Origin: Eledone cirrhosa
Taxonomy: Eukaryota
DNA: 64,000 nt
Direction: 5' to 3'
Assembly: GCA_964016885.1 (NCBI GenBank)
Contig: OZ024743.1
Location: forward strand, 310,062,001-310,126,000
Shown here: positions 5,534 through 64,000 of the stretch, in pieces
How positions within the stretch are numbered: position 1 is the stretch's first letter
How the letters are laid out: the number at the start of each line of letters is the position of its first letter
Made by a program: the position numbers and the translations under genes
The notes under the pieces: model-generated
What the model was told of the DNA's origin: nothing
Databases searched by the model: none
The model's input: the letters and a program-made list of their open reading frames with translations, nothing else

Positions 5534-5940
5534 GAGGTTATATTTAATTTGTTGGGATTCTTTTTCTCTCTCTTTCAATATTTTTTCTCTCCCTCTCAAT
5601 ATTTTCCCTCTCACTATTTTATCTCACCCCCTTTTACATCTCCTCTTCTTCCAACAGTTTAATTTAAATATACCGTTGTATTTTCAATTTTTCGAACACT
5701 CATTTGCATAGTCACTCATAACTTTGTATTACCCTCAATCAAATATCATCTCCACTATCCAGGAAGCTTCAACCGTTAAGGTTGTCTTTTTTCCGGGTAT
5801 GTCAATATTTATTTATAAAACAAATCTGTATTTTACCTGATGAAAGCGCACCATAATTTGCCTTGGTTGCCCTTGAAATATATATAATAAAATAATTCTG
5901 GTTTTATAAATATAGTTTCCATTTATTAATATATTGTGGA
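5530..5940 (+). mobile_element. Solo PLE pseudo-LTR, diverged copy
   Basis: Similar to 25325-25950 and 49340-49690; contains an HHR; bounded by (TA)n. Confidence 0.7.
5829..5894 (+). ncRNA. Type I hammerhead ribozyme
   Basis: TATTTTAC-CTGATGA-stem II-GAAA-TATATA-TA-ATAAAATA. Confidence 0.7.
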
Positions 5941-14908: not shown

Positions 14909-14961
14909 CTGCTATATATATTTCGGTGGCAGCCATTATTGGCTGTGACCTCTTCAGGCAG
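14909..14961 (-). ncRNA. Type I hammerhead ribozyme
   Basis: CTGC-CTGAAGA-GGTCACAGCCA-loop-TGGCTGCCACC-GAAA-(TA)n-GCAG; paralogue at 18244. Confidence 0.75.
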
Positions 14962-16010: not shown

Positions 16011-16225
16011 TATATATGCATATATGTATGTGTATAATATGTATATATATATATATATATATGTGTAAGGATATATACATATAGCTATGTGTTTATGTAT
16101 GTGTATATATATGTATATATGTATATATATATATATAATGAAAAATTGAACAGGGACAGAACAGAGAGGCAGTACAATAAATGTTTATTAAATTCACGCT
16201 CAGGAGAGTGGGTGGTAGGTGGGGT

Positions 16226-16257
16226 ACGACGTTTCGGGCATAAGCCCTTCTTCAGGT
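16226..16257 (-). ncRNA. Minimal type I hammerhead ribozyme
   Basis: AC-CTGAAGA-A-GGGC-TTAT-GCCC-GAAA-CG-TC-GT; classic PLE GAAACGTC form. Confidence 0.85.
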
Positions 16258-17602
16258 GAGAAGTGTGTCGGAACAGAGTTCAAAAGGTGTGTAGGGGAGT
16301 GGTGGAGAGACATAGAGCGAAAGGAAACGGTGCGAATGAAAAATTAACAAATAAAGACAAAAAATATAATAAATAAAAATAAAGCATGATCAAAATACAA
16401 GGAATGAGAAAATTTAAAAATAAAGGCATGATCAAAATAAACTGAAATTAAGAGGGGGGGTAAACAGGTGGTGGAAGGGTGTGGGGTGAGTAGGGGTGGT
16501 GGCGGGTGGAGTGGGGAGAGGGAGACGGGGTGTCCGAGTGGGGAGGGCTGAAGGTGGTGTGTGTGGTTAGGTGTGCGTGTGTGTGTGTGTGTGTGTGAAA
16601 GTGAGGGTTGGGGGAAGAACGGGGTTGCATGTTCAGGAAGGTGTGTGTGGGGGGTGTTTTTGTGGGTCCGAGTGTCTGTGCGTGTGTGGATAGGGGGTGG
16701 GGGAGAGGAATCAGGAGGCTGAGGGTGTAAATATGTGGTGGGAAGCACGTGTGTGTGGTTTAAGCGTGTTGGGGGTGTGGGTGGCGTGTGGATAAACAAT
16801 TTTTTTTTTTGGGGGGGGGGGTGAGTTATATAGGTGATGGTGTAAGAGGATGGTTGAAAAGTTGGTAAGTTCCACGGATGTTTGGAGATTTGGTTAGAAG
16901 TCAATTTCGCGTGTGGGTAATCCAAGAAGCGGTGGTCGGTAGAGGAGAGATGTGGGGTGCGCGCGCAACAGGAAGTGGTCAGCAGTGGGAGTGCTGTGGT
17001 CAGTTGGTGCTGAGAGGTGGTCGAAAGGGCATAGCAGTAGTCGGCGGAATGGTAGGGTGGCGAGGATGGGTAGGTGTGAGAGTTGGAGTGAGGAGAGTGT
17101 GTGTGTGTGTATTAGTAGGGGTGTTAGTGGGATGAGTGAGTGTGGAGCGGGGAGAGAAGGGTGTGTGTGGTTCTATGGAGGGAGTGTGGTGTACTGGTGA
17201 GTGTGTAGTTTGGTGAAGAGGTGTTAGTGGGTGTTAGTATACGGGAGGTGGGGAGGGGTGGAATGCAGGTGTGAGTGGGGGTTAGTGGTGGTAGGGTGTG
17301 TAGAGTTGGTGGTGTACGAGGGTGTGTGGGTACGTGTGCGTGGGGTTGGGGGGGGGGTGTTAGTGATGTTAGTTGTGTGTGGGGTGGGTGGTGTACGTGG
17401 GTGCGTGTGTGCGTGTGATAAGGAGGGGGAGGAGGAGAAGAGGGGAGGGAAGGGATGTTAGTATGTTAGTTGGGGAAGGGTGGTCAGATGAGGGGTAGAG
17501 TGGAGGTGTTAGTATTGTTAGTGTGGGGTGGGCGGTGAAAATGAGGGGTGTGTTAGTGGTGTTAGTGGGGGATAAGTGTGGGGGGAGGGGGGCGGTCGAA
17601 CG

Positions 17603-17983
17603 CTAAAGGAATAAGGGTGGGGAGTTCAGGCCGGGGGGAGTGTGGGTCTGTAAGATGAAGATAGTGCGTTGTTCGACCGTAAGGCGATGGGCGGGTGTTC
17701 CGTGGCACTGGAGTAGGCCACAGACTGTGAGATGGCGTGCGGAGTGTCCAGGGCCACCAAAGTGGCGGGCGATGGGGGAACTGCCCTCGAGACGAATATC
17801 CCGTCTGTCCGACATAAGTCGCGCTGCACTCCGTGCAACGAAGTCCGTAGACTAGGTTGGAGGAGGTGCAGCGGAAGGCATGCCGGACCGAGAGAGAGTG
17901 GCCGTTGGGACCCTGGAAGGTGGTGGTGTTGGTGATGTGGGGACAGGTGTTGCAGCGGGGCCTAGAACAGGGGAAGGAACCGT
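17603..17983 (-). pseudogene. PLE GIY-YIG endonuclease with internal deletion/frameshift
   Basis: [12 protein letters not shown]...[24 protein letters not shown], then PIARHF...R...EQ..IF.LQT..PPGLN. Confidence 0.9.
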
Positions 17984-18243: not shown

Positions 18244-18298
18244 ACTGCTATATATATTTCAGTGACAGCCATCTTTGGCTGTGACCTCTTCAGGCAGT
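18244..18298 (-). ncRNA. Type I hammerhead ribozyme
   Basis: ACTGC-CTGAAGA-GGTCACAGCCA-AAGA-TGGCTGTCACT-GAAA-TATATA-TA-GCAGT. Confidence 0.85.
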
Positions 18299-22759: not shown

Positions 22760-22831
<72 letters not shown>

Positions 22832-23032
22832 TATGTACACGTACATACATATATGTATACAGACGTACAGTAGTATGTATATATATATACATACATGCAC
22901 ACATATATATATGTACGTATGGATTCACCGAACATTTATTATTATGCTCGGTGTGTTTGTAAACAAACATCCCGTATTAAGCCGTAGTGTCTAGCAACCA
23001 TCGTTGCTCGTTTGTTCAACACGGACAAAGGA

Positions 23033-23075
23033 ACGCTGTACTAGTTTCAAGCTTATTAGCTATCGTCAGCAACGT
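23033..23075 (-). ncRNA. Type I hammerhead ribozyme
   Basis: ACGTTG-CTGACGA-T-AGCT-AATA-AGCT-T-GAAA-CTAG-TA-CAGCGT. Confidence 0.88.
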
Positions 23076-23450
23076 ATACCTTCCTGCCAGATTGTTGAAC
23101 GTATATACTTACCTTATGCATATTAACGGCTGAGTAGCCCAATTTGCATATCGAGTGGTTAATCGGCCGGGTGCACCGAAAACGATAAACGGAAAAATGA
23201 AACGAAATTTCATTTCCCACTCTTAGTACGGCTGTTACTTAAATATAAGTATGTATACGTACATACATATATGTATACAGACGTACAGTAGTATGTATAT
23301 ATGTATACATACATGCACACATATATATATGTACGTATGGATTCGCCGAACATTTATTATAATGCTCGGTGTGTTTGTAAACAAACATCCCGTATTAAGC
23401 CGTAGTGTCTAGCAACCATCGTTGCTCGTTTGTTCAACACAGTCAAAGGA

Positions 23451-23493
23451 ACGCTGTACTAGTTTCAAGCTTATTAGCTATCGTCAGCAACGT
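23451..23493 (-). ncRNA. Type I hammerhead ribozyme
   Basis: Identical motif to 23033-23075, 418 bp away. Confidence 0.88.
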
Positions 23494-23549
23494 ATACTTT
23501 CCTGCCAGATTGTTGAACGTATATACTTACCAATCTGGCAGGAAGGTAT

Positions 23550-40361: not shown

Positions 40362-40529
40362 AAAAAGTATGATCCCGACAGCAGAGCTCAAGCCGTTTCG
40401 ACGGCTATTTCTGGACTATTTAGTCCAGAAATAGCCGTCGAAACGGCTTGACCTCTGCCGTCGGAGTCATACTTTTTCTTATTTCCCACTCTACTACCCT
40501 AAGTATTGAGTATTCTGGTGCGTTATGGT

Positions 40530-40869
40530 TCATTTTTTTTTCAACACATCGTTTTCGGTATGCCTAACCGACTTAGCTCACTCGATATGCAAATTAGGCT
40601 GCTCAGCCGTTAATTTTCATAAGGAAAGTATATACTTTCGAACGTTCAACTATCTGGCAGATGGGTATACGGTGCTAATGATAGCTAACAAGCTTGAAAC
40701 TAGTACATCGTTCCTGTGTCAGTGTTGAACAAAAAGGTGACGTGGTTGCCTTAACACCGTACGGCATAAAAATTCAGGCTGTTCAGTTTGTTTACAAACG
40801 AACAAAGCGGCGTTATAATAAGCGTCTGCTAAACTGATACGTGCATATATGTATGTGTACCTGTATGTA

Positions 40870-40926
<57 letters not shown>

Positions 40927-41366
40927 GCATGCTACTGTACGTCTGTATACATATATGTATGTACGTATACACACATACTTACATTTAAGTAAGTGCCGTA
41001 CTAAGAGTGAGAAATGAAATTTCGGTTTCATTTTTTTTCAACTCATCGTTTTCGGTATGCCTGACCGACTTAGCTCACTCGATATGCAAATTAGGCTGCT
41101 CAGCCGTTAATTTTCATAAGGAAAGTATATACTTTCGAACGTTCAACTATCTGGCAGATGGGTATACGATGCTAATGATAGCTAACAAGCTTGAAACTAG
41201 TACATCGTTCCTGTGTCAGTGTTGAACAAAAAGGTGACGTGGTTGCCTTAACACCGTACGGCATAAAAATTCAGGCTGTTCAGTTTGTTTACAAACGAAC
41301 AAAGCGGCGTTATAATAAGCGTCTGCTAAACTGATACGTGCATATATGTATCTGTACCTGTATGTA

Positions 41367-44504: not shown

Positions 44505-44926
44505 TAAACGGAAAAAATGAAACGAAATTTCATTTACCACTCTTAGTGCGGCTGTTACTTAAATATAAGTATGTACACGTACATACATATATGTATACAG
44601 ACGTACAGTAGTATGTATATATATATACATACCAGCACATATATATATATGTACGTATGGATTCACCGAACATTTATTATAATGCTCTGTGTGTATGTAA
44701 ACAAACATCCCGTATTAAGCCGTAGTGTCCAGCAACCATCGTTGCTTGTTTATTCAACACTGACAAAGGAACGCTGTACTAGTTTCAAGCTTATTAGCCA
44801 TCGTCAGCAACGTATACCTTCCTGACAGATTGTTGAACGTATATACTTACCTTATGCATATTAACGGCTGAGTAGCCCAATTTGCATATCGAGTGGGTTA
44901 ATCGGCCGGGTGCACCGAAAACGATA
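44505..44926 (-). repeat. Single monomer of the 418-bp HHR repeat
   Basis: Near-identical to the 22828-23250 unit; HHR at 44771-44813; further fragments at 44040-44160 and 45298-45470. Confidence 0.85.
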
Positions 44927-45789: not shown

Positions 45790-45885
<96 letters not shown>

Positions 45886-45922
45886 GATGTGAGAAAAACC
45901 ACAGACCCTCCATCTCAAATCA

Positions 45923-45960
45923 CCTTTTGAAAAGCAGAAGAACTGCGAAACCGGTAAAGG
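45923..45960 (+). ncRNA. Minimal hammerhead ribozyme, U3:A8 core variant
   Basis: CCTT-TTGAAAA-GCAG-AAGAA-CTGC-GAAA-CCGG-TA-AAGG; stems I and II perfectly paired. Confidence 0.8.
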
Positions 45961-46100
45961 AACCAAATAAATATATATATTTAAAAAAGAAATAAGACTT
46001 CAGTTGCATTTTCGATTTCATCTCTTTTTCTTTATACTTTCACTCGTGTAGGACACCTCGGTTATTTTTCATTTTGTAAAAAAAACCTCACTTTCTAATA

Positions 46101-48636: not shown

Positions 48637-49330
48637 TTACGTTTTAAATTTATATTTAAACGTTGAGTTCAATCTATGTCTACAGCAACTGAATAAATTG
48701 TTCCTTAGGTTCAGGGAATTTTTGGTCTTTAATATAAAGAATATTTCCTCTATACAAAGATCACAATTTTCTGAAGAGGAGTTAAAAGGAGTAGCTTTTG
48801 AAATAATATTCCAAATCAACGAATATTTAACATTCTTTAGTTTGAGGTATAATAAGCTAGATAAAGAAGTTGAAGATTTTTTGGGGGGATCTGTAAAAGA
48901 ATTTTTATGATTATTGAAGCGGGATTTAAACTCTGTGGAAGTGTATCCCACATAATTAAATGAATTTAAATTAGTTTTTACATTACAATTATATACTATA
49001 TTTTTAGCTAAGCAATTGTTATTTAACGGGCAGTTAGATTTAATTCTACAGTTACATTTATCAAATTGGATATTGCTTGGGTTATTAGTGGTATTTTGGT
49101 TAGGTTTTAAATTTCTATTATTAATTCTATTAATATTTTGCGCTAAGTTTTTGGTGGAAGAAGTTAATTTTATAGTATGTCTATTAAAAATTGAATAATA
49201 TCTATGTGTTCTAAGGAAGCATTTGTCAAGATCTTTAAACAATAGTTTAGCAATAGGGGTTTTAATATTTAATGAGAAAGGAGGAGCGAACCATAATATG
49301 TTCCTAGTTCTATATCTTTTTTTGTTTTCG
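48637..49330 (-). pseudogene. Naiad-type PLE GIY-YIG endonuclease region
   Basis: RNILWFAPPFS...IFNRHTIK...CNCRIKSNCPLNNNCLAKNIVY...NYVGYTSTEFKSRFNNH...CDLCIEE...LN.R..LFSCCRH. Confidence 0.9.
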
Positions 49331-49488
49331 GAATTATTGTAAGGTTTTCTTTTATTTAAAAATATCCAATACTAACTTACCTAATACTATAAGTATAAAT
49401 ATAACTCCACTATCCGGGAGCTTCCAACAGTAATGGTTGCATTCTTTATGTGTATGTCAGTATTTATTCATAAAACTGCTCTATATTA

Positions 49489-51296: not shown

Positions 51297-51370
51297 GCTT
51301 TCTGATGATGACACGACACTCGCACACAGAACAGTGTGGCCAGTGTCGTCACTGAAATATATATCACAGC
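51297..51370 (+). ncRNA. Type I hammerhead ribozyme, long stem II
   Basis: CTGATGA-TGACACGACACT...AGTGTCGTCACT-GAAA-TATATA-TC-ACAGC. Confidence 0.75.
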
Positions 51371-52906: not shown

Positions 52907-54429
52907 CTATTTATAACATACTTGACCTCCTTTTCAACCCAAGAGACACATAAAATATATGCGCATATTGATCAACAGTGGGGTGACATTCATCAAATGA
53001 TATAGCATGGCAATTTACATATAAATGTTACAGGATAAAAATAAAATAAAAACAAGAGTGAAAATAAAGATAAACATGAAGCGTTGGCAGTCTATGAAGA
53101 TAAAGCAAGAGGAAAGCTTAGAGTAGTCAGTGTATGAAACAATCTCCCGTGTAGCATGCACGCGTGTCTTATCTATACATGATTAGAGTGCGTCAGAATG
53201 ATATTTGCAGGGTCAGGCAGTTGAAGCAGGCAATCGATCTTATTATGTAGACTGAATTATTAAGTCATTTCTTCTCATACATCTGTATGATATACAGTCT
53301 CGGATGCGGGGAAACACCAAAATATCAAAAACCTTCAACATACTATAAACCTTATTGTATCGTAGGCAAGGCCGTACCACTATCCTTGCTCACACCACCA
53401 CTCACATAATCCATGAGACGCAATATATATATAGAGAACACGCGTCTATCGTATAATTCGCGGTGGTTCAGCATATAGTCAAGCTATAAACCGCATCCAG
53501 TCGGTTCTTAATTAATATATCATGCTGTCCAGATTCCGGAAGTGCCTGAATGACTAAGGGGAATTAATGCGTAAGGGGAGGTAACTAGCTAGTTATCTTA
53601 GTTACATTACTATCCTAAACTACAATAATGGTGATTCAAATACGTGCCTATCATGTGAAGTTATAACTAATATCTAGAGTATGTTACCCATTTATAGGTT
53701 AGAGAGTTGTCCATTAAGAAGTACAAGGGTGTATATATTAGGATGATTACCATCCATTAATTAAGTGGTGTTTTATCTGAACGTTCTATAAGAGGAGTCA
53801 GACTCTCAAGTCACTGCTCCATGCAAATGTAATTTAACAGTAGGACCTGGTATGGTCCCAATATTATATATGCCACCCGGTAGGCTCCGGGTCATTGCAT
53901 GCCTGCATCTCCAGTAAATCTTCGGTATGGTCCGGAGATCCAATCTCTCATATAAATGCACTAGTCTGGCCATCAAGCAATAGACAACCCCCGTCTTAAA
54001 TATAAATCAATTATGTATCACATCTACAAGCTAGAGTGGAGTCTATTAATAGGTACTAAAGGAGTTCACATCAAGATGATTACGTGCATAATTCATTGAA
54101 CTGATCGCTTACAGTATATATTCACTTAACAATACGATTATCTATCTAATCATCAATCTATCTCTTGGTGGTAATCCATGCACAGGACTATGTTATCGCA
54201 ACCAGTACCGTGTCCCCAATTTATGCTAATCTTATATTTGTGCAATGCAGAATAAGTAGTCCACGGTCGAGATATCAGTATTAGAGGTACAAGGGGGTAT
54301 TCCCAGGGTAGGTGGTACTAAAATACTGTCAGTATTATCTTTAGAGTATAGAGATGGGTGTGGATGTGAGGTGTAAGGTGAGGCTACTGATGTTAATTGC
54401 TAGGGGTGGTGCCGGTTCCAGTCTGACAT

Positions 54430-55310
54430 TATTATATATAGGGTTTAAAGTTTTGGAACGAGTGTCGGAAGCGGTGTTGGCAATTTGCGAACACTTCTGA
54501 TTTTTTATTAAGGAGATATGTTTAGAGAAGATGATAGTATGGGTCTCTAGTAGACAGAGGTTACAAAATTTATCAGGTGGTTTGTACGATGTTGCACTAC
54601 CTACCACTTCCCATTTAAGTGTATATATTTTAATTTTAGTTTTTAGATAGTGTATGTAGCTAGATAGTGAAGTGGAGTTGGCTAGACTGTGTTTTTTGAA
54701 AGAGTGGAGGTGCGAATTGTATCTAGTTTTGAAGCAGTTAGAAGTGGAGCCTATGTAGGTTTCAGAAGAGCTGTTAGTTGTGACTGTACATGAGTATATG
54801 ATATCCTTGGTTAAGCATTTTTTATCTAAAGGGCAGGTTCTACTTGATCTACAGTTACAATTACTCTGGGTGCTAGTCTGCCGGTTACTATGCTGTGTAG
54901 AAGTTTGGATGTTAGCTATAGGGTTATGGTTATGCGGGTTGTGGTACGCAGCGTTAATGTTTACACTAGTGCTATTACTATTATTTCCATTGATATTACG
55001 GTTATTTGTTATAATATTACTTTCACTGTTATTTTGAATGTTATTTTGAAGGTTTATCGACCGTTGTGATTTAGTTTATTGGAAGTAAGAATTAATTTTT
55101 CTTTTATTTGTACTAGCTATGTGTTATGCTAGGTTAGGCGTAGTAGAGTATGAGATCTTAATAGTGTTTTTGTTTAAAAGGCCGTGGTACCTGTGGCCGG
55201 ATGGGTAGTGTTTATCTAGTAGTGAGAAGAAAGCCCCAGGAAGGTTGGTAGAGACGTTTAAATTGAAAGGAGGGTTGAAAAATGTATTATTTCTTCTTCT
55301 ATTTCTGTTT
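54430..55310 (-). pseudogene. Naiad-type PLE GIY-YIG region, frameshifted
   Basis: RNNTFFNPPFNLNVSTN...LLDKHYP..HRYHGLLNKNTIKISYS...CNCRSSRTCPLDKKCL..DIIY...TYIGSTSNCFKTRYNSH...CNLCLLE. Confidence 0.88.
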
Positions 55311-56267: not shown

Positions 56268-56453
56268 AGATATATATATATATTTATATATATTTATATT
56301 TATATATATATATATGAAAAGTGTAAGTTTCTACACAAAACGAAGGTTATAGAGAAAATTGAGGTTGGTAATGGCACATGGAATATATAAGAGACAGAAT
56401 ACTTTTTTGTGAAAAAACATAATTTTATAAGGTAAGGAAAGAATAAAGGGTAT

Positions 56454-56503
56454 AACAAATGACCGGTTTCGATGGGTCTGCAAAAGCCATCTTTTCAAAT
56501 GTT
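56454..56503 (-). ncRNA. Hammerhead ribozyme, U3:A8 core variant
   Basis: AACAT-TTGAAAA-GATGG-loop-CCATC-GAAA-CCGG-TC-ATTTGTT. Confidence 0.75.
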
Positions 56504-57549
56504 GATTAATATTAAGAAAAATTAATAATAAGAAGGGTTAAAATTTGAGATTTGAAAATTCAAGTATAAAATTCAGTGTGGGATTTCATAGTAGTTTTCA
56601 TCTTGGTAGCAGCAAGTTGACTGCTGTGTGTCCCTTTCTGATAGTGAATGAGGAATTATTTGTGGGGAGTGGTTTTTTTTCAGGTCAGATTTAGCAATGG
56701 CCAGATGGCCAGCTGCTGGTCAGTGAGGGGGTGGAAGCAATATACATACATATATCTCCATGTGGTCGGTAGGAGAGGGGAGAGTGAGAGAAAGGGATTT
56801 AGTGCACTTACACCTATATATACACATACCCTCATCCACACACACATACATATAAATATACATACATATATATATATAAACACACACATACACACACACA
56901 CAAATACATATACATACACACATACACACACACATACACACACACACATATATACACATACACACACATATATATACACACACACACATATATATATACA
57001 TACACATACACACACACACATACATACACACACACATATATACATACACACATACAAACACACACACACATATATACACATACACACATATATATATACA
57101 CACACACATACATACACATACATACATCCACATGCACACACATACACTCACACACATACACATACATACACCCACACACATAGAGAAATGGCCTCCAAAT
57201 ATATATATATACATACATACACATATATTTTTTACATAATATAAGAAGTTAGAACAGTGAAATTAAAATACAAGTCATTATGATCACATTGAGTTCTTCA
57301 TGTAGATTGGGCCCCACAACCGACAGTGGTGAATTCTGTGTGCGCATATATATATAGATACATGTGTGTGCACGTTCAGGGTTTAACATGGATGCGTTGG
57401 TCACACAAAGGCATGTTCTGTCAACGAATAAACCTGAATCTACAGAATTGGTCTCTGGTCTTTAATAGTAGTGATAATTATATACATGCACACATACACA
57501 CACATATCTGTCACTCCGTGCGTATGTGTGTTTATATTTTATGACAATT

Positions 57550-60500
57550 CTATTGGGGTGATAACCCGTTTAGTTTTGGTTTACATTTGTTAAGGAATAG
57601 ATTTTCTTTTTTTATTCTTTGTTGCTGTGTGAACGAATCTGAGCACTTGTAGAAGGGGAAGATTTTAAAGTTGGGTTGTGTCATTCCTGCGCAGTTTGCA
57701 ATATGGCTGCTCAAGGGATTTTTCTTCTGTTAGCGTCCCGGATTTGTTGGCGGTGGATGGTCATTCTTTTGCATAATGAGGCGCCCGTCTGTCCTATGTA
57801 GTTGTGTTTGCACCCACCGCAAGTTATTGCGTAAATCAAGTTCTCCGAGTTGCAGGTGAAATTGTTTTTCACTGTAAATGTTTGGCCATCTTTAAATGTA
57901 AATTTGTGTCCTTCAGTGAGGTAGAGTCACGCTCCACAGTTTGTTCTACCACATTTGGTAACTGTAGGGTTGAGGATTGGTTTGAGTATATTTGGTCCAG
58001 TGAGAATGCGTTTTAGTGATTTGGGTTGTCTTTTACTTTTAAGGATCTTGTGTGTTTCAAGAATAAACTTCATTTTATATCTTTAAGTAGGATGGGGAGG
58101 TTTTTGTGTAGGTGATCAAACATTTCGGTATTTCTGGGGTTGAAAGTGGATACATATGGCAAGGTGTTGAGTGTGGTTTTCTGTTTTGGCTTGTTAATTT
58201 GATGGGGATTTAGGTGTTTTGCCATGTCTATTCCATTGTTGATTATTTCAAGTGGAAAGGCTCTTAAGATAAGGGTGTCTTTTAGTTCCTTTAGTCTTTG
58301 CTCCCGTTTAGGTGGATCTGATACTATGGTACATATACGTTTGGCCAAATTGTCAGGAATGTTAAGTTTTGTATGTTTTGGGTGACTTGATGTGAAAAAG
58401 AGGTATTGCTTGGAATCTGTGGGTTTATAGAATATATCTGTATCTAATTTCCCGTCTATTACAGAGATGAGAATATCCAAGAAGGCTAATTCCTTGGGAT
58501 TGGATTCCATTGTGAATTGTATGTTATTATCTATGTTGTTTATCATGTTTTTAAACATAGTAAGTGAGTTCATGTCTTCTTGCCATAGGATAAAGCAGTC
58601 GTCTAGATATCTTTTCCAATTAGCTTTGAGGTGTGTGTGGAAGGAGTCTCCAAATAAGAGAAGGGACTGACTGTATATTTGTTGTTCATGGAATCCCATG
58701 ACTAGGTTGGCCTATGTGGGTGCTACTTTCGTGCCCATTGCAGTACCTGATACTTGTCTGTATGTTGAACCATTGAATGTGAAATAGTTATTTTGTAAGA
58801 TAAAGCGGAGTCCGTCAGTGATAAAATCTTTCTTGATGCGTGTCGGTATTTCTGATGGGTGTGTGTTAAGCCAGTATTGGACTGCTGTTATTCCATAGTT
58901 GTGGGGTATGTTTGTGTATAGGTTTATTACGTCAAAGGAGACAATAATTGTATTTGCACTTACTGTTTTAGGGAGGTGTTTCAGCATGTCAAGGTCATCT
59001 CGTATGTAGCTCTGTATATGTTGTAGAAAGGGTTTCAGTAGGATGTCCAGAAAGTTGCTAAGTCTGTGGGTTTCACATGTAGGGCCTGCTATAATTGGCC
59101 TGAGTTTTAGGTCTTCTGGTGGTGTTAGTTCAATGTAATTGTTGGTTGAGGTGTCACATGCATCGTTTATGGGTTTACATTTGTGGAGTTTCGGTAAGCC
59201 GTAAAATGAGCTTGTATTGCATTTGAAGTGGCTTATATAGTTAAACTCTTTTGTGGTTAAGCTGTTGCGGTATTTATTCAGTAAGGTCAAAAGGTTCCCC
59301 ATTGTTTTGTTGTGTTTGTAGTTTTCTGTTTTTTCATAGTATGTGTTGTTTTCTAAAATGTTAAGTGCGAGGGTCCTATAGTAGTCCGTATTCATAATGA
59401 CAACAGTACTGCCTTTATCGGCTTCTTTGATGGTTATCTCAGGGTTGTTTCTAAGTGTGAATAATTCTTCCCATTCGTGTGTAGATAGGTTTGATTTCGT
59501 GTGTTTATTTGTAATTTTTTCATAGGGAAAGTTGGTGATGTGTTCGCAGTACGTGTCCAGTGCTTTATTTCTTCCCTTTTGTGGGCAGAAATTGCTTTTA
59601 TTTCTAACCAGTGATTCGTCTTCAGTGTTGGTGTCGTTGTGGAAGAATTCCGTTAGTCGCAGCTTTCGGCAGAATTCTATGATGTCATCCTTCATTTCGG
59701 GGAAGTTTGGTTTACGTGGTGTAGGTGTAAATTTCAGGCCCTTACTTAAAATGTTGATTTGTGTGTTGGTTAGAGGTGTCTTTGAGAGGTTGATTATTTT
59801 TGGTTTCTCCTGAGGGGGGAGGGGGCGCATCGAGTATCCTGGTATTTCAGGCTTTTCCCTAAAAAAGGAATGTAGTTTTGTGTGTGATTATATTTTGTTG
59901 GTCTGTTGCGTGTGGTTCTGTAGCTTGTTGTTTCATGAGGGTGAATGTGATGGTGGGGGTGGTATGTGTTGTGGTTGTTAATGAGCAAGGGTTCTGTTGT
60001 TGGTTCATGTGGTCTGGGTGCGATATTTCTGTGGTACAGAGTGTTGAGGTTGGGGGTTGTCTTTTGTTGGATTGAGGGTGATGTCTGGTGTGGTTGTGGG
60101 TAAGTTCTGTTGTGATTTCAAGTGGTCTGGGTGGGTTTCTTCTGAGGAATGTGGTGTGTGTGTTGTGAGTTGGATCTATGTTATTTCGTCGTTGGTTTAT
60201 GTAGGGGTATTTCTACTGAAACCTGTGTTGTGGTGGTTGGGTGTGTTTCTTTTGGTGTAGTTGGCCGTATTTGGTTTGTGTTGGTGGGGGATGTGCCTGT
60301 GGTTAGTGTGTGTTGGGTTTGGTGGTGTAAATGTGTCTGTTGTAGTTCTTGTTATGTTCAAATGCTTTATAAAGGAGTTACCTGTTTGGTGCGTCCTTTT
60401 AAAGTCTTCTTCATATTTGAGGAACCAGTTTTCGGATTTTTCCCACCCTATAAGGGAAATAATTTCTGCATTCTCGCAGTCCTGTTTCCACGATTTGATT

Positions 60501-61097
60501 AAATTTTGTAGGGTTGTTGCCTCGGCCTTTTTAGTGCATTCTTCCTCCATGTTTTCATCAGTATCATTATACTCTTGCACGTTGGAGGTGGCCCTTAATT
60601 TTAGGAGTTCTATTTCCATGTTTATCCTGTTGAGTGACATTTGTTCACGGAGTTTTCTTTCTGGTTCAGGTTCGTTTGTAATATGCTTTATTTGGAATTT
60701 ACGTGGTAAAACTATCGGTGTTGAGTTAATCCATTTCTGGTAAATTCCAGCTTTGTTGAGGTTTTTTATCATATTCCAGAAAGTGAATTTTCTGGTTTTT
60801 TATCATATTCCAGAAAGTGAATTTTCTGGTTTTTAGATGTTTTTTCCAGAGGTGTCCCATTTGGTTTTTGATATGGAGCAATGTTTTCTGTTCTGTTTTG
60901 GTATTCATAAGTTTTTCGATGGAGTTGCATACGTTTTGAACGTTTAAATAAATGTGGTTGTCAGTCAGTGTGGTGGTTTGGGGTATATCCTGTTTTTTTG
61001 TCAGAATGGTGAGTTTACCATTTATCTCTTTTAGAATTTTCAGGATTTCCTCATTTATATTGGAGTTTGAAGTTGTGTTGTCTTGTTCCAGTGCCAT
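57550..61097 (-). pseudogene. PLE polyprotein (N-terminal region, RT, GIY-YIG) with several frameshifts
   Basis: IINLS...LSKGLKF.PTP; KEADKGS.VV; FYGLPKLHK; LRPIIAG; VSFDVINLYTNIP; QVSGTAMGTKVAP; RYLDDCF; LAFLDI; YKPTDSKQYL; LIYAITCGGCKHNYIGQTG. Confidence 0.95.
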
Positions 61098-61266
61098 TTT
61101 CCGGATTTGCGTAGGTTAGTATATATGAAAAATGTAAGTTTCTACATAAAACGAAGGTTATAGAGAAAATTGAGGTTGGTAATGGCACATGGAATATATA
61201 AGAGACAGAATACTTTTTTGTGAAAAAACATAATTTTATAAGGTAAGGATAATTTATAAAGGGTAT

Positions 61267-61316
61267 AAAAAATGACCGGTTTCGATGGGTCTGCAAAAGC
61301 CATCTTTTCAAATGTT
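61267..61316 (-). ncRNA. Hammerhead ribozyme, U3:A8 core variant (upstream pseudo-LTR copy)
   Basis: Same TTGAAAA-GATGG...CCATC-GAAA-CCGG-TC motif, ~170 nt upstream of the ORF ATG at 61097. Confidence 0.75.
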
Positions 61317-61667
61317 GATTAATATTAAGAAAAATTAATAATAGGAAGAGTTAAAATTTGAGATTTGAAAATTCAAGTATAAAATTCAGTGTGGGATTTC
61401 ATAGTAGTTTTCATCTTGGTAGCAGCAAGTTGACTGCTGTGTGTCCCTTTCTGGTAGTGAATGAGGAATTATTTGTGGGAAGTGGTTTTTTTAAGGTCAG
61501 ATTTAGCAATCACCAGATGGCCAGCTGCTGGTCAGTGAGGGGGTGGAAGCAATATACATACATATATCTCCCTGTGGTCGGTAGGAGAGGGGAGAGTGAT
61601 AGAAAGGGATTTAGTGCACTTACACCTATATATACACATACACTGATCCATACACACATACATATAC

Positions 61668-61709
<42 letters not shown>

Positions 61710-62449
61710 CAAAATACACACACACACACACACACACATATATACACATATACACATACACACACATATATATGCATACACATACATCCAGATATACACA
61801 TACATACATATACATACACATATATATATATGTACATACACATATATATACACACACACATACATACACACGCACATATATACATACACACATACAAACA
61901 CACACACACACATATATACACATACACACACATATATATACACACACACACACATATATATACATACACATACATCCAGATACACACATACATACACACA
62001 CACACATATACATACACATACATACATCCACATGCACACACATACAAACACACATACACATACATATACACCCACACACATAGAGAAATGGCCTCCAAAT
62101 ATATATATATACATACATACACATATATTTTTTTCATAATATAAGAAGTTAGAACAGTGAAATTAAAATACAAGTCATTCTGATCACATTGAGTTCTTCA
62201 TGTAGATTGGGCCCCGGAACCGACAGTAGTGAATTCTGTGTGCGCATATATATAAAGATATATGTGTGTGCACGTCCAGGGTTTAACATGGATGCGTTGG
62301 TCACACAAAGGCATGGTCTGTCAACGAATAAACCTGATTCTACAGAATTGGTCTCTGGTCTTTAATAGTAGTGATAATTATATACATGCACACATACACA
62401 CACATATCTGTCACTCCGTGCGTATGTGTGTTTATATTTTATGATAATT

Positions 62450-62947
62450 CTATTGGGGTGATAACCCGTTTAGTTTTGGTTTAAATTTGTTAAGGAATAG
62501 ATTTTCTTTTTTTATTCTTTGTTGCTGTGTGAACGAATATGAGCACTTGTAGAAGGGGAAGATTTTAAAGTTGGGTAGTGTCATCCCTGCGCAGTTCGCA
62601 ATATGGCTGCTCAAGGGGATTTTTCTTGTGTTAGCGTCCCGGATTTGTTGGCGGTGGATGGTCATTCTTTTGCGTAATGAGGTGCCCGTCTGTCCTATGT
62701 AGTTGTGTTTGCACCCACCGCAAGTTATTGCGTAAATCAAGTTCTCCGAGTTGCAGGTGAAATTGTTTTCTACTGTAAATGTTTGGCCATCTTTAAATGT
62801 AAATTTTTGTCCTTCAGTGAGGTAGAGGCACGTTCCACAGTTTGTTCTACCACATTTGGTAACTGTAGGGCTGAGGATTGGTTTGGGTATATTTGGTCCA
62901 GTGAGAATGTGTTTTAGTGATTTGGGTTGTCTTTTACTTTTAAGGAT
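62450..62947 (-). pseudogene. Duplicate GIY-YIG coding segment in the upstream partial tandem copy
   Basis: KCGRTNCGTC linker; NLIYAITCGGCKHNYIGQTGTSLRKRMTIH...KFKPKLN. Confidence 0.9.
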
Positions 62948-63604
62948 CTATAATTATCACTACTATTAAAGACCAGAGACCAATTCTGTAGAATCAGGTT
63001 TATTCGTTGACAGACCATGCCTTTGTGTGACCAACACATCCATGTTAAACCCTGGACGTGCACACACATATATCTATATATATATGCGCACACAGAATTC
63101 ACTACTGTCGGTTCCGGGGCCCAATCTACATGAAGAACTCAATGTGATCAGAATGACTTGTATTTTAACTTCACTGTTCTAACCTGTTATATTATGTAAA
63201 AAATATATGTGTATGTATGTATATATATATATTTGGAGGCCATTTCTCTATGTGTGTGGGTGTATGTATGTGTATGTGTGTGTGTGTGTGTGCATGTGAA
63301 TGTATGTATGTGTATGTATATATGTGTGTGTGTGTGTGTATGTATGTGTGTATCTGGATGTATGTGTATGTGTATATATGTGTGTGTGTGTGTTTGTATG
63401 TGTGTATGTATATATGTGTGTGTGTATGTATGTGTGTATATATATATATATGTGTATGTACATATATATATATATATGTATGTATGTGTGTGTGTATGTG
63501 TATGTATATATATATGTGTGTGTATATATATATATGTGTGTGTGTATGTGTATATGTGTGTGTGTGTGTATGTGTGTATGCATATGTATGTGTGTGTGTA
63601 TGTA

Positions 63605-63635
<31 letters not shown>

Positions 63636-63956
63636 GTATGTATATGTATATGTATGTGTGTGTGGATGAGGGTATGTGTATATATAGGTGTAAGTTTACT
63701 AAATCCCTTTCTATCACTCTCCCCTCTCCTACCGACCACATGGAGATATATGTATGTATATTGCTTCCACCCCCTCACTGACCAGCAGCTGGCTGTCTGG
63801 CCATTGCTCAATTTGACCTTTAAAAAAACCACTCCCCACAAATAATTCTTCATTCACTACCAGAAAGGGACACACAGCAGTCAACTTGTTTCTCAGAAAC
63901 AAAATGGCGTAGGACAGAACAAAGGAGAGGCACAAAAACAAAGAAAAGAATCCCCA

Positions 63957-63999
63957 GTCACTGATGAGGTTACAGAATGTGTGACGAAAGAACTTTGAC
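63957..63999 (+). ncRNA. Minimal type I hammerhead ribozyme
   Basis: GTCA-CTGATGA-G-GTTACA-GAATG-TGTGAC-GAAA-GAAC-TT-TGAC; family of 36713 and 43600. Confidence 0.8.
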
Positions 64000-64000
64000 A

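Follow-up and report, generated by a model that had tools for sequence, protein, structure and literature searches.

A minimal hammerhead with a U3-A8 core pair in both direct repeats of a decayed, putatively Neptune-type PLE from Eledone cirrhosa

Our analysis of a window of 64,000 nucleotides from Eledone cirrhosa revealed a Penelope-like element (PLE) that is nearly complete but dead for protein and that carries one minimal hammerhead in each of its direct repeats. The reading which we regard as probable is that of a decayed Neptune-type element whose hammerhead core is likely kept working by a U3-A8 pair and is predicted to cut slowly, through pairing of two motifs at ACCGGU and probably with the help of a protein.

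The two motifs are found on the - strand in the flanking PLE repeats, upstream at 61274-61311 (pattern and descriptor search) and downstream at 56461-56498. The first-pass annotation had reported the motif in both repeats on this strand and at the correct sites, although its spans included 5-7 flanking bases. Both copies match letter for letter over 38 nt (TTGAAAA-GATGG-(11-nt loop)-CCATC-GAAA-CCGG-TC) and differ only beyond these, the fifth base after the cut being G downstream and U upstream. The identity of the two 38-mers is however not evidence of selection, because it has a P of ~0.31 from background divergence alone. The upstream hammerhead reads U3 U4 G5 A6 A7 A8 A9, then stem II, G12 A13 A14, ACCGGU and C17, with the predicted cut between 61274 and 61273. 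In detail, U4 G5 A6, A9, G12 A13 A14, A15.1-U16.1 and H17 all match the minimal type I PLE hammerhead, and the Watson-Crick pair which the literature describes at 3-8 is present as U3-A8. Stem II has 5 bp (GAUGG/CCAUC) closed by G10.1-C11.1. Stem I consists of 2 adjacent Watson-Crick pairs next to the core, or 3.5-4.5 by bulge score, the usual range being ~3-5 bp, and no additional unpaired base, a common but not universal feature, stands between 9 and 10.1, nor does one in the close C3:G8 relatives L005, L006 and L081. Published hammerheads with a 2-bp stem I do exist, and some published rows likewise lack the additional base (PMC4209133 supplement). In the monomer CCGG forms no stem; ACCGGU is a self-complementary palindrome, closed by A15.1-U16.1, which permits a dimer as expected for stem III/loop 3.

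The motif pattern had 3 matches in the 64-kb window, namely the two copies and a site at 45927-45956 on the + strand, whereas none of 100 dinucleotide shuffles contained a match; this null overstates the rarity of the motif because the pattern was derived from the motif itself. A generic hammerhead descriptor gave 4 matches in the window against 0.1 per shuffled strand. As had been noted before, descriptor and pattern searches found no CTGANGA hammerhead inside the element; canonical hammerheads occur elsewhere in the window, on the - strand at 14957, 16255, 18293, 23069, 23487 and 44807 and on the + strand at 5837. Rfam at gathering threshold returned 0 matches in the 64 kb; descriptors demanding CUGANGA miss such motifs. 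The match at 45927 is a solo U3:A8 hammerhead inside a short insert flanked by (TA)n runs. It has the core and ACCGGT in common with the hammerhead of the element but differs in both stems (stem II GCAG/CUGC, stem I of 4 bp) and carries A17 instead of C17; BLAST of the insert against the element gave no match of at least 60 nt. It belongs to another family. The earlier comparison of the two motifs was thus right about the common core and CCGG and the differing stems, but not in treating CCGG as stem III of the monomer.

The downstream direct repeat (56309-58048, - strand) comprises the endonuclease region, a 3' UTR with a TG/TA microsatellite, the hammerhead and a 152-nt extension, and its 3' end adjoins a (TA)n array. 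The upstream repeat (61120-62949, - strand) is 5'-truncated and retains an open linker and GIY-YIG frame (Pfam GIY-YIG, E 8.5e-7). These copies, previously termed pseudo-LTRs, are indeed repeats, but they are actually partial tandem copies of ~1.8 kb which include the endonuclease coding region and share 91% identity with gaps counted. An inverted, 5'-truncated copy of the repeat adjoins them at 62949-63888 (+ strand) and lacks the hammerhead because it ends ~115 nt before the hammerhead position. Such a combination of a partial tandem and an inverted copy is that of an EN+ PLE and is described for PLEs in passages of Craig et al. 2021 (PMC8557442). In addition, the PLE-type RT (GxKF, DKG, YGLPK) is followed by a C-terminal GIY-YIG, as in EN+ PLEs, and Pfam detects RVT_1 and GIY-YIG domains in the element.

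ORF2 (57550-59887, - strand) codes for the RT (motifs GLKF, DKG and YLDD), a C-x4-C-x2-C linker and the GIY-YIG endonuclease. It is interrupted by stops at 58712-58714, 58070-58072 and 57927-57929 and by frameshifts near 58050 and 57715, so that the description as near-complete holds for the extent of the element but not for its proteins. A protein search with the RT gave matches of 55-60% to PLE-like RT-endonuclease proteins, most of them unnamed, the named ones being mostly molluscan with one labelled Octopus bimaculoides. In the upstream copy the next Cys follows the C-x4-C-x2-C linker after 24 residues, a length that by-eye comparison with the Fig. S2 rows places with Neptune rather than Nematis. 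Assignment to the Neptune type is a putative one made from motifs, the RT tree containing no named reference elements. Naiad, including the selenoprotein Naiads, was rejected since its endonuclease is N-terminal and that of the element C-terminal. Selenocysteine readthrough at 57927-57929 was also rejected, as the TGA found there is TGC in the upstream copy and Cys in relatives. The same applies to a non-LTR retrozyme, which is a short non-coding tandem of a few hundred bases, whereas the unit of the element has 4.8 kb and codes for an RT.

In this copy ORF1 (59794-61097, - strand) is disrupted: compared with other copies it has a short duplication and two single-base gaps. It is conserved, with 29-41% identity to ORF1 of the relatives L001, L002, L007 and L011 (E 3e-18 to 6e-30). 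A UUUUUUA heptamer at 59860-59866 (- strand) is predicted to act as a programmed -1 frameshift site leading from ORF1 into the RT frame; a UUUUUUR site in -1 phase joins these frames in the element and in 10 of 13 close relatives. Pseudoknot-free folding lent no support to a stimulatory structure 3' of the slippery site (z -0.33). No Pfam family above cut-off was obtained for the main ORF1 segment of the element or the ORF1s of four relatives, and ESM Atlas gave no usable match for ORF1, a result that implies neither absence nor novelty.

In the upstream monomer of the hammerhead a competing hairpin of 11 bp is predicted to bury the core, with a stem II probability of 0.0; stem II of the downstream copy reaches ~0.76, and stem I has 0.0 in both. 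Unconstrained dimer folding yielded no double hammerhead for either copy of the element but did so for the 45927 motif, and folding energies were no better than those of shuffles (z -0.9 and -0.35). The modelled competing fold and the weak stem I would suit a hammerhead that is catalytically impaired or dead and is retained near the priming site as a signal, either structural or for binding protein, or that is carried along as a passenger of the 3' end. Functions besides cleavage are indeed allowed for PLE hammerheads, along with the proposed role in precursor processing (PMC4209133), and in PAc of the green anole cleavage was dispensable for insertion in vitro (Frangieh et al. 2024, PMC11167929). 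We nevertheless consider this reading unlikely. None of the catalytic positions is damaged, and 5 further loci as well as the 45927 motif, all of which have stems of their own, show the 3-8 change in compensatory form, a pattern to be expected where selection acts on an active core. For the active core that we favour, two motifs would likely pair through the ACCGGU palindrome and cut slowly, and only as a pair, a protein probably assisting. Minimal PLE hammerheads are known to cleave weakly as dimers, at low rates (PMC4209133), and PAc, the one PLE tested in vitro, needed the PLE protein to cleave (PMC11167929).

The two cut sites are 4,813 nt apart, with 176 nt between the upstream one and the ATG at 61097, which bears out the unit of ~4.8 kb and the ~170 nt estimated earlier. 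Products of ribozyme cleavage carry no cap. Within cells, cleavage would release RNA of unit length (4,813 nt) from read-through or tandem transcripts; this RNA would have a 5'-OH end and no cap and may be circularised. The downstream repeat ends at 56309, ~150 nt past the downstream cut site. Across ~61140 the contig depth drops from 147,869 to 2,945 in run X1 and from 235,439 to 18,117 in run X5; run X2 has no depth step there. Separately, many reads of the RAD-seq run X15 fit only 61232-61336 and then diverge; they may stem from short solo copies or few loci.

The exact geometry could suggest that both sites are cut efficiently and that the linear 4.8-kb product, beginning 176 nt before the ATG, is working mRNA and template at once, since it would contain ORF1, ORF2 and the 3' UTR and since precursor processing is the role proposed in PMC4209133. 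This appears quite unlikely, however, as the copies reach ~150 nt beyond the downstream cut, a stretch absent from the 3' end of a doubly cut linear RNA, and such an RNA primed at its 3' end can therefore not be the template. Moreover, the leader contains three AUGs ahead of 61097, the ribozyme product would be uncapped, and hammerhead mutants of PAc insert normally, with no RNA-seq ends at the site (PMC11167929). New copies likely arise from RNA left uncut at the hammerhead, with priming ~135-150 nt beyond the cut site and with a circle, a multimer or an unprocessed transcript as candidate templates, which would account for an insertion longer than the unit. For PAc, internal priming on RNA that had not been processed has been demonstrated (PMC11167929).

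As to the core pair, ~700 raw reads showed no majority difference, among those listed, at positions 61311 and 61306, and because neither core base has a majority change the family of the element has U3:A8, and not the canonical C3:G8, as its majority form. The proposal that a lineage has fixed the non-canonical core is thereby upheld for this family, but not for a deeper lineage. In its relatives a sense-strand motif was detected at 23 of 87 loci (16 C3:G8, 5 U3:A8, 1 G:C and 1 A:U). Metagenome relatives were recovered by an alignment scan and none by a single-protein scan. The RT tree is a quick version with SH-aLRT support only; each motif was assigned to the RT lying close to it, 60 of the 82 rows fall outside both core groups, and L085 is a weak U3:A8 row. 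On this tree the distribution of U3:A8 needs 6 scattered changes, at least 5 of them forced by starred branches. It is not clustered, as all of 500 shuffles came out as low as these 6 changes, and C3:G8 predominates among the nearest relatives in which a motif was detected. A MAFFT alignment of ten motifs put the cores out of register and was set aside, as was the U3:A8/CCGG pattern in viral contigs, where the 40 loci mostly lack a folding stem II and are uninformative.

The presence of two different U3:A8 motifs with a common ACCGGU within one window, as well as that of the weak motif L085 in the starred 16-row clade of the element, might indicate that U3:A8 marks a single old PLE lineage including the element and the 45927 fragment. 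Yet the C3:G8 loci L005 and L081 share that clade, L005 being nearer than L085, L006 is also C3:G8, the four other U3:A8 loci sit on distant branches next to C3:G8 relatives, and the 45927 fragment, having no RT, cannot be placed, all of which makes a single lineage very unlikely in our view. PLE families have likely arrived at U3:A8 repeatedly, as a compensatory swap that is tolerated and does not mark one lineage.

The novelty implied for U3:A8 did not survive, given that this core pair is already in print for PLE hammerheads (PMC4209133), which makes the finding an ordinary one. The element is a further, cephalopod example of the published variant and of little weight as a discovery. There is some possibility, though a tentative one, that two points go further: the repeated flips between C3:G8 and U3:A8 (at least 5 in a small sample, nearly always with A7), and, in a mollusc-rich Neptune-type group, a ribozyme-carrying element with two ORFs which would express its RT-endonuclease from an unnamed ORF1 by a conserved -1 frameshift at UUUUUUR, a retrovirus-like scheme that has yet to be described explicitly for PLEs with an endonuclease. 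ORF1 and its frameshift may perhaps be the more useful lead on how Neptune proteins are produced, and the family is a natural system in which to ask if PLE hammerheads with U3:A8 cleave and if their cleavage is of importance for the copying of PLEs.

The closest known system is the Cercyon PLE of Schistosoma mansoni, whose U3-A8 hammerheads have ~1,300 matches and start with UUGAAAA (Cervera & De la Pena 2014, PMC4209133); a PLE-linked U3-A8 example, UUGAAAAA, is given in the supplement of that study. Like Cercyon, the element has a minimal type I hammerhead in both PLE repeats, with U3-A8, the UUGAAAA start, G10.1-C11.1, a palindromic stem III/loop 3 and many solo copies. Unlike Cercyon, it lacks an extra base between A9 and G10.1, its palindrome has 6 nt (ACCGGU) instead of 4, its 5-bp stem II carries a loop of 11 nt, its stem I is weaker and the hammerhead resides in a Neptune-type element of a cephalopod genome. 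Passages of the literature on octopus Penelope hammerheads contain nothing about this motif.

Natural hammerheads with the identical compensatory core pair have been proven active in vitro (Perreault et al. 2011, PMC3088659), although the relevant passages give neither rates nor a link to PLEs. The Neptune clade, as described in passages of Craig et al. 2021 (PMC8557442), resembles the element in its RT, CX2-5CxxC linker and C-terminal GIY-YIG, in the partial tandem with an inverted truncated copy, in the (TA)n target and in a hammerhead near the 3' end; the Fig. 1 legend mentions an ORF1 with a frameshift for some PLE types. Finally, PAc, a Poseidon element, also has its hammerhead near the junction of repeat and ORF, and its genomic 3' ends likewise lie past the cut, but it is C3:G8, has a single ORF and is cut inside this ORF, whereas the element would be cut ahead of the ATG (PMC11167929).

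Both direct repeats of the Neptune-type Penelope-like element (PLE) carry, on the minus strand, the same U3:A8 hammerhead motif, TTGAAAA GATGG (11-nt loop) CCATC GAAA CCGG TC, at 61274-61311 (upstream) and 56461-56498 (downstream), with complete identity over 38 nt, as the first-pass annotation had read it. In hammerhead numbering, the motif consists of U3 U4 G5 A6 A7 A8 A9, G12 A13 A14 and C17, with a stem II of 5 bp closed by G10.1-C11.1 and a stem III region of A15.1-CCGG-U16.1. A third motif at 45927-45956 (plus strand) shares core and palindrome and differs in its stems, again in agreement with that annotation, and has A17. A pattern derived from the motif matched three places in the window and none in 100 shuffles, and a generic hammerhead descriptor gave four matches against 0.1 per shuffled strand. 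Rfam at the gathering threshold gave no match in the window. The claim that the element's repeats lack a canonical CTGANGA hammerhead held as well, since neither the descriptor nor looser scans found a canonical core inside the element. Both core types are nevertheless present in the genome, because exact CUGANGA motifs occur outside the element at 5837, 14957, 16255, 18293, 23069, 23487 and 44807, in a looser scan of the window whose 19 rows include some duplicate or chance matches.

The element motif is therefore real and correctly read, and it belongs to a variant class that has already been published. Passages of PMC4209133 (Cervera & De la Pena 2014) describe minimal hammerheads of PLEs, the variant 'U3-A8 instead of C3-G8' in Cercyon elements of S. 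mansoni (~1,300 matches, mostly single motifs) and, in the supplement, a PLE-linked row beginning UUGAAAAA; they report no cleavage by monomers and weak cleavage by dimers. Natural U3-A8 with in vitro activity already proven is mentioned in a passage of PMC3088659 (Perreault 2011).

Other hammerheads lie elsewhere in the window. A solo insert of about 85 nt (45882-45970, plus strand) between (TA)n runs holds a U3:A8, A17 hammerhead. Repeats with periods of 418 and 497 nt and hammerhead-like motifs occupy 22822-23539, 44560-44859 and 40527-41323, with CUGACGA and ACUAGU at 23069, 23487 and 44807 (minus) and CUAAUGA variants at 40675 and 41172 (plus); these could be short ends of PLEs arranged in tandem, or units resembling retrozymes. 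Canonical-core hammerheads in which stem II is long and the palindrome is AUAUAU (14915-14957 and 18251-18293, minus; 5837-5884, plus) belong to further families, and 3' halves resembling theirs lie at 51354 and 52656 (plus). The region 16220-17900 (minus) is the 3' end of another PLE family; it has a GIY-YIG-like remnant recognized by eye, a C/A-rich tract of some length and, at 16255, a minimal hammerhead of the C3:G8 type.

Stem III cannot be stable in one element motif because only A15.1-U16.1 flanks CCGG; as in the published PLE dimer model, ACCGGU would allow two motifs to pair. The two folded sequences differ at a single base, the fifth after the cut, which is U upstream and G downstream. 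For the upstream motif the predicted fold is a hairpin of 11 bp in which the core is buried and stem II has a probability of 0.0; for the downstream motif stem II is predicted at 0.76. In neither copy are the two pairs of stem I beside the core predicted to form (probability 0.0). Unconstrained dimer folding of these motifs gave no double hammerhead, and the dimer of the 45927 motif folds as one in silico. The element hammerhead thus folds unfavourably unless helped, which makes slow, assisted cleavage likely. According to passages of PMC11167929 (Frangieh 2024), cleavage by a PLE hammerhead depends on the PLE protein, insertion in vitro proceeds without the hammerhead, priming occurs internally, and RNA-seq yielded no ends at the cleavage site.

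Cutting at both sites would yield an RNA of 4,813 nt with its 5' end 176 nt ahead of the ATG, in line with the first-pass annotation. As a template primed at its 3' end, however, such a doubly cut linear RNA does not fit: the downstream copy continues 152 nt beyond its cut site, to 56309, contig depth (a summed depth, not a copy number) falls near 61140 in the sequencing runs X1 (147,869 to 2,945) and X5 (235,439 to 18,117), though no such step is seen in X2, and the whole direct part (56309-62949) is, at 6.6 kb, longer than one unit. The copies extending past the cut and the depth drop suggest copying from RNA uncut at the downstream site, which the length of the direct part also supports. 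New copies would then start downstream of the cut site, and the template could be circular, multimeric or a transcript left unprocessed and primed internally.

The direct repeats (56309-58048 and 61120-62949; 91% with gaps) include the endonuclease region and are larger than the first-pass annotation implied. Sequence comparison identified an inverted, truncated copy at 62949-63888 (plus), a partial tandem and inversion layout that the element shares with PLEs as described in passages of Craig 2021 (PMC8557442). This copy ends abruptly, short of where the hammerhead would lie, and the sequence beyond it (63889-64000, plus) is unrelated, perhaps another insertion. The 3' end of the element adjoins (TA)n. 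Pfam recognized RVT_1 (E 2.2e-7) in the RT and GIY-YIG (E 8.5e-7) in the upstream copy, and the linker, C-x4-C-x2-C, is Neptune-like in length when compared with rows of the Craig 2021 supplement. In a search with the RT frame, in which one stop was entered as X, 1,521 of the 8,000 candidates scored were relatives at E<=1e-30 (best 55-60% identity), the named ones mostly molluscan and one labelled Octopus bimaculoides. Together with the richness of the DNA in (TA)n, these matches suggest a cephalopod host. With stops at 58712-58714, 58070-58072 and 57927-57929 as well as frameshifts, this copy is dead for protein; selenocysteine at 57927-57929 was ruled out, as the second copy reads TGC there and the stop is hence a mutation. 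Two 244-aa frames (48637-49371 and 54341-55075, minus; the latter with a weak GIY-YIG match, E 0.005) are possibly N-terminal-endonuclease (Naiad-like) fragments.

To what extent the U3:A8 core is fixed was followed in 87 related RT loci, with motifs paired to RTs by proximity. A strict scan (null: 0.2 per shuffled set) found sense-strand motifs in 23 of them, 16 C3:G8, five U3:A8 (L017, L035, L052, L076 in both repeats, and L085 with a weak motif), one G:C and one A:U, and antisense matches in four; when the criteria were loosened for 21 close loci, L006 proved to have C3:G8 as well. The RT tree (quick IQ-TREE, SH-aLRT only) comprised 82 rows, namely the window and 81 loci, six without a long enough match, including L006, being dropped; 60 rows fall outside both core-type groups. 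On it U3:A8 takes six changes, at least five of them forced by starred branches, and all 500 shuffles (mean 5.5) were as low as observed. The starred 16-row clade to which the window belongs includes two C3:G8 loci, L005 and L081, and one with a weak U3:A8 motif, L085. Position 7 is A (UUGAAAA) in all well-formed sense-strand U3:A8 motifs (L017, L035, L052, L076 and the window) and varies among the C3:G8 motifs in this small sample. L081-L087 lie within bacterial genome bins, likely through contamination from animal hosts.

Four of 17 listed runs were mapped on 59600-61600 at 80% likeness; those indexed contain 40-53% of the sampled words (X15 was not indexed) and may come from relatives of the host. 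Raw-read depth over the upstream motif is about 700 in X15 (RAD-seq), and among the 40 of 194 difference rows listed, majority differences stand at 61254 and 61389 with none between. A canonical C3:G8 consensus is consequently very unlikely for this family, although minority C3:G8 copies may exist. The proposed fixation of the non-canonical core therefore stands at the level of the family, where U3:A8 is fixed, and fails deeper in the tree: the absence of clustering and the C3:G8 neighbours within the clade indicate that the swap recurs across PLEs.

Upstream of the RT frame, and overlapping it, lies a conserved ORF1 (59794-61097, minus; ~420 aa, no Pfam family), whose segment 60200-60799 shows 29-41% likeness to upstream ORFs of L001, L002, L007 and L011. 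Contigs of X1 and X2 are without the 34-nt duplication present in the window at ~60760-60794 and have one additional base at 60203 and one at 60051. With these corrections, a UUUUUUA heptamer at 59860-59866 (minus) has the ATG at 61097 in its zero frame (1232-34+2 = 1200 nt), the four corrected segments stay open as far as 59796, and the RT is read in the -1 frame, from which a programmed -1 frameshift is predicted. Two points count against it: an AUG near 59830, in frame, could initiate ORF2 by itself, and folding after the heptamer shows no conspicuous stimulator. As to the predicted frameshift, 13 close loci extend far enough upstream; UUUUUUA or UUUUUUG precedes the RT start in 10 of them (L001, L002, L003, L006-L011 and L081; not found in L013, L050 and L079), each time in the -1 phase, counts which are not independent trials owing to shared ancestry; two more distant loci, L059 and L069, also have the heptamer. 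A UUUUUUR frameshift site was not found described in titles and passages on Neptune elements. According to the legend of Fig. 1 in Craig 2021, some types of PLE can have ORF1 set apart by a frameshift that involves a pseudoknot. A killifish Neptune is described in passages of PMC12602865 as having two ORFs, and frameshifting is not mentioned there.
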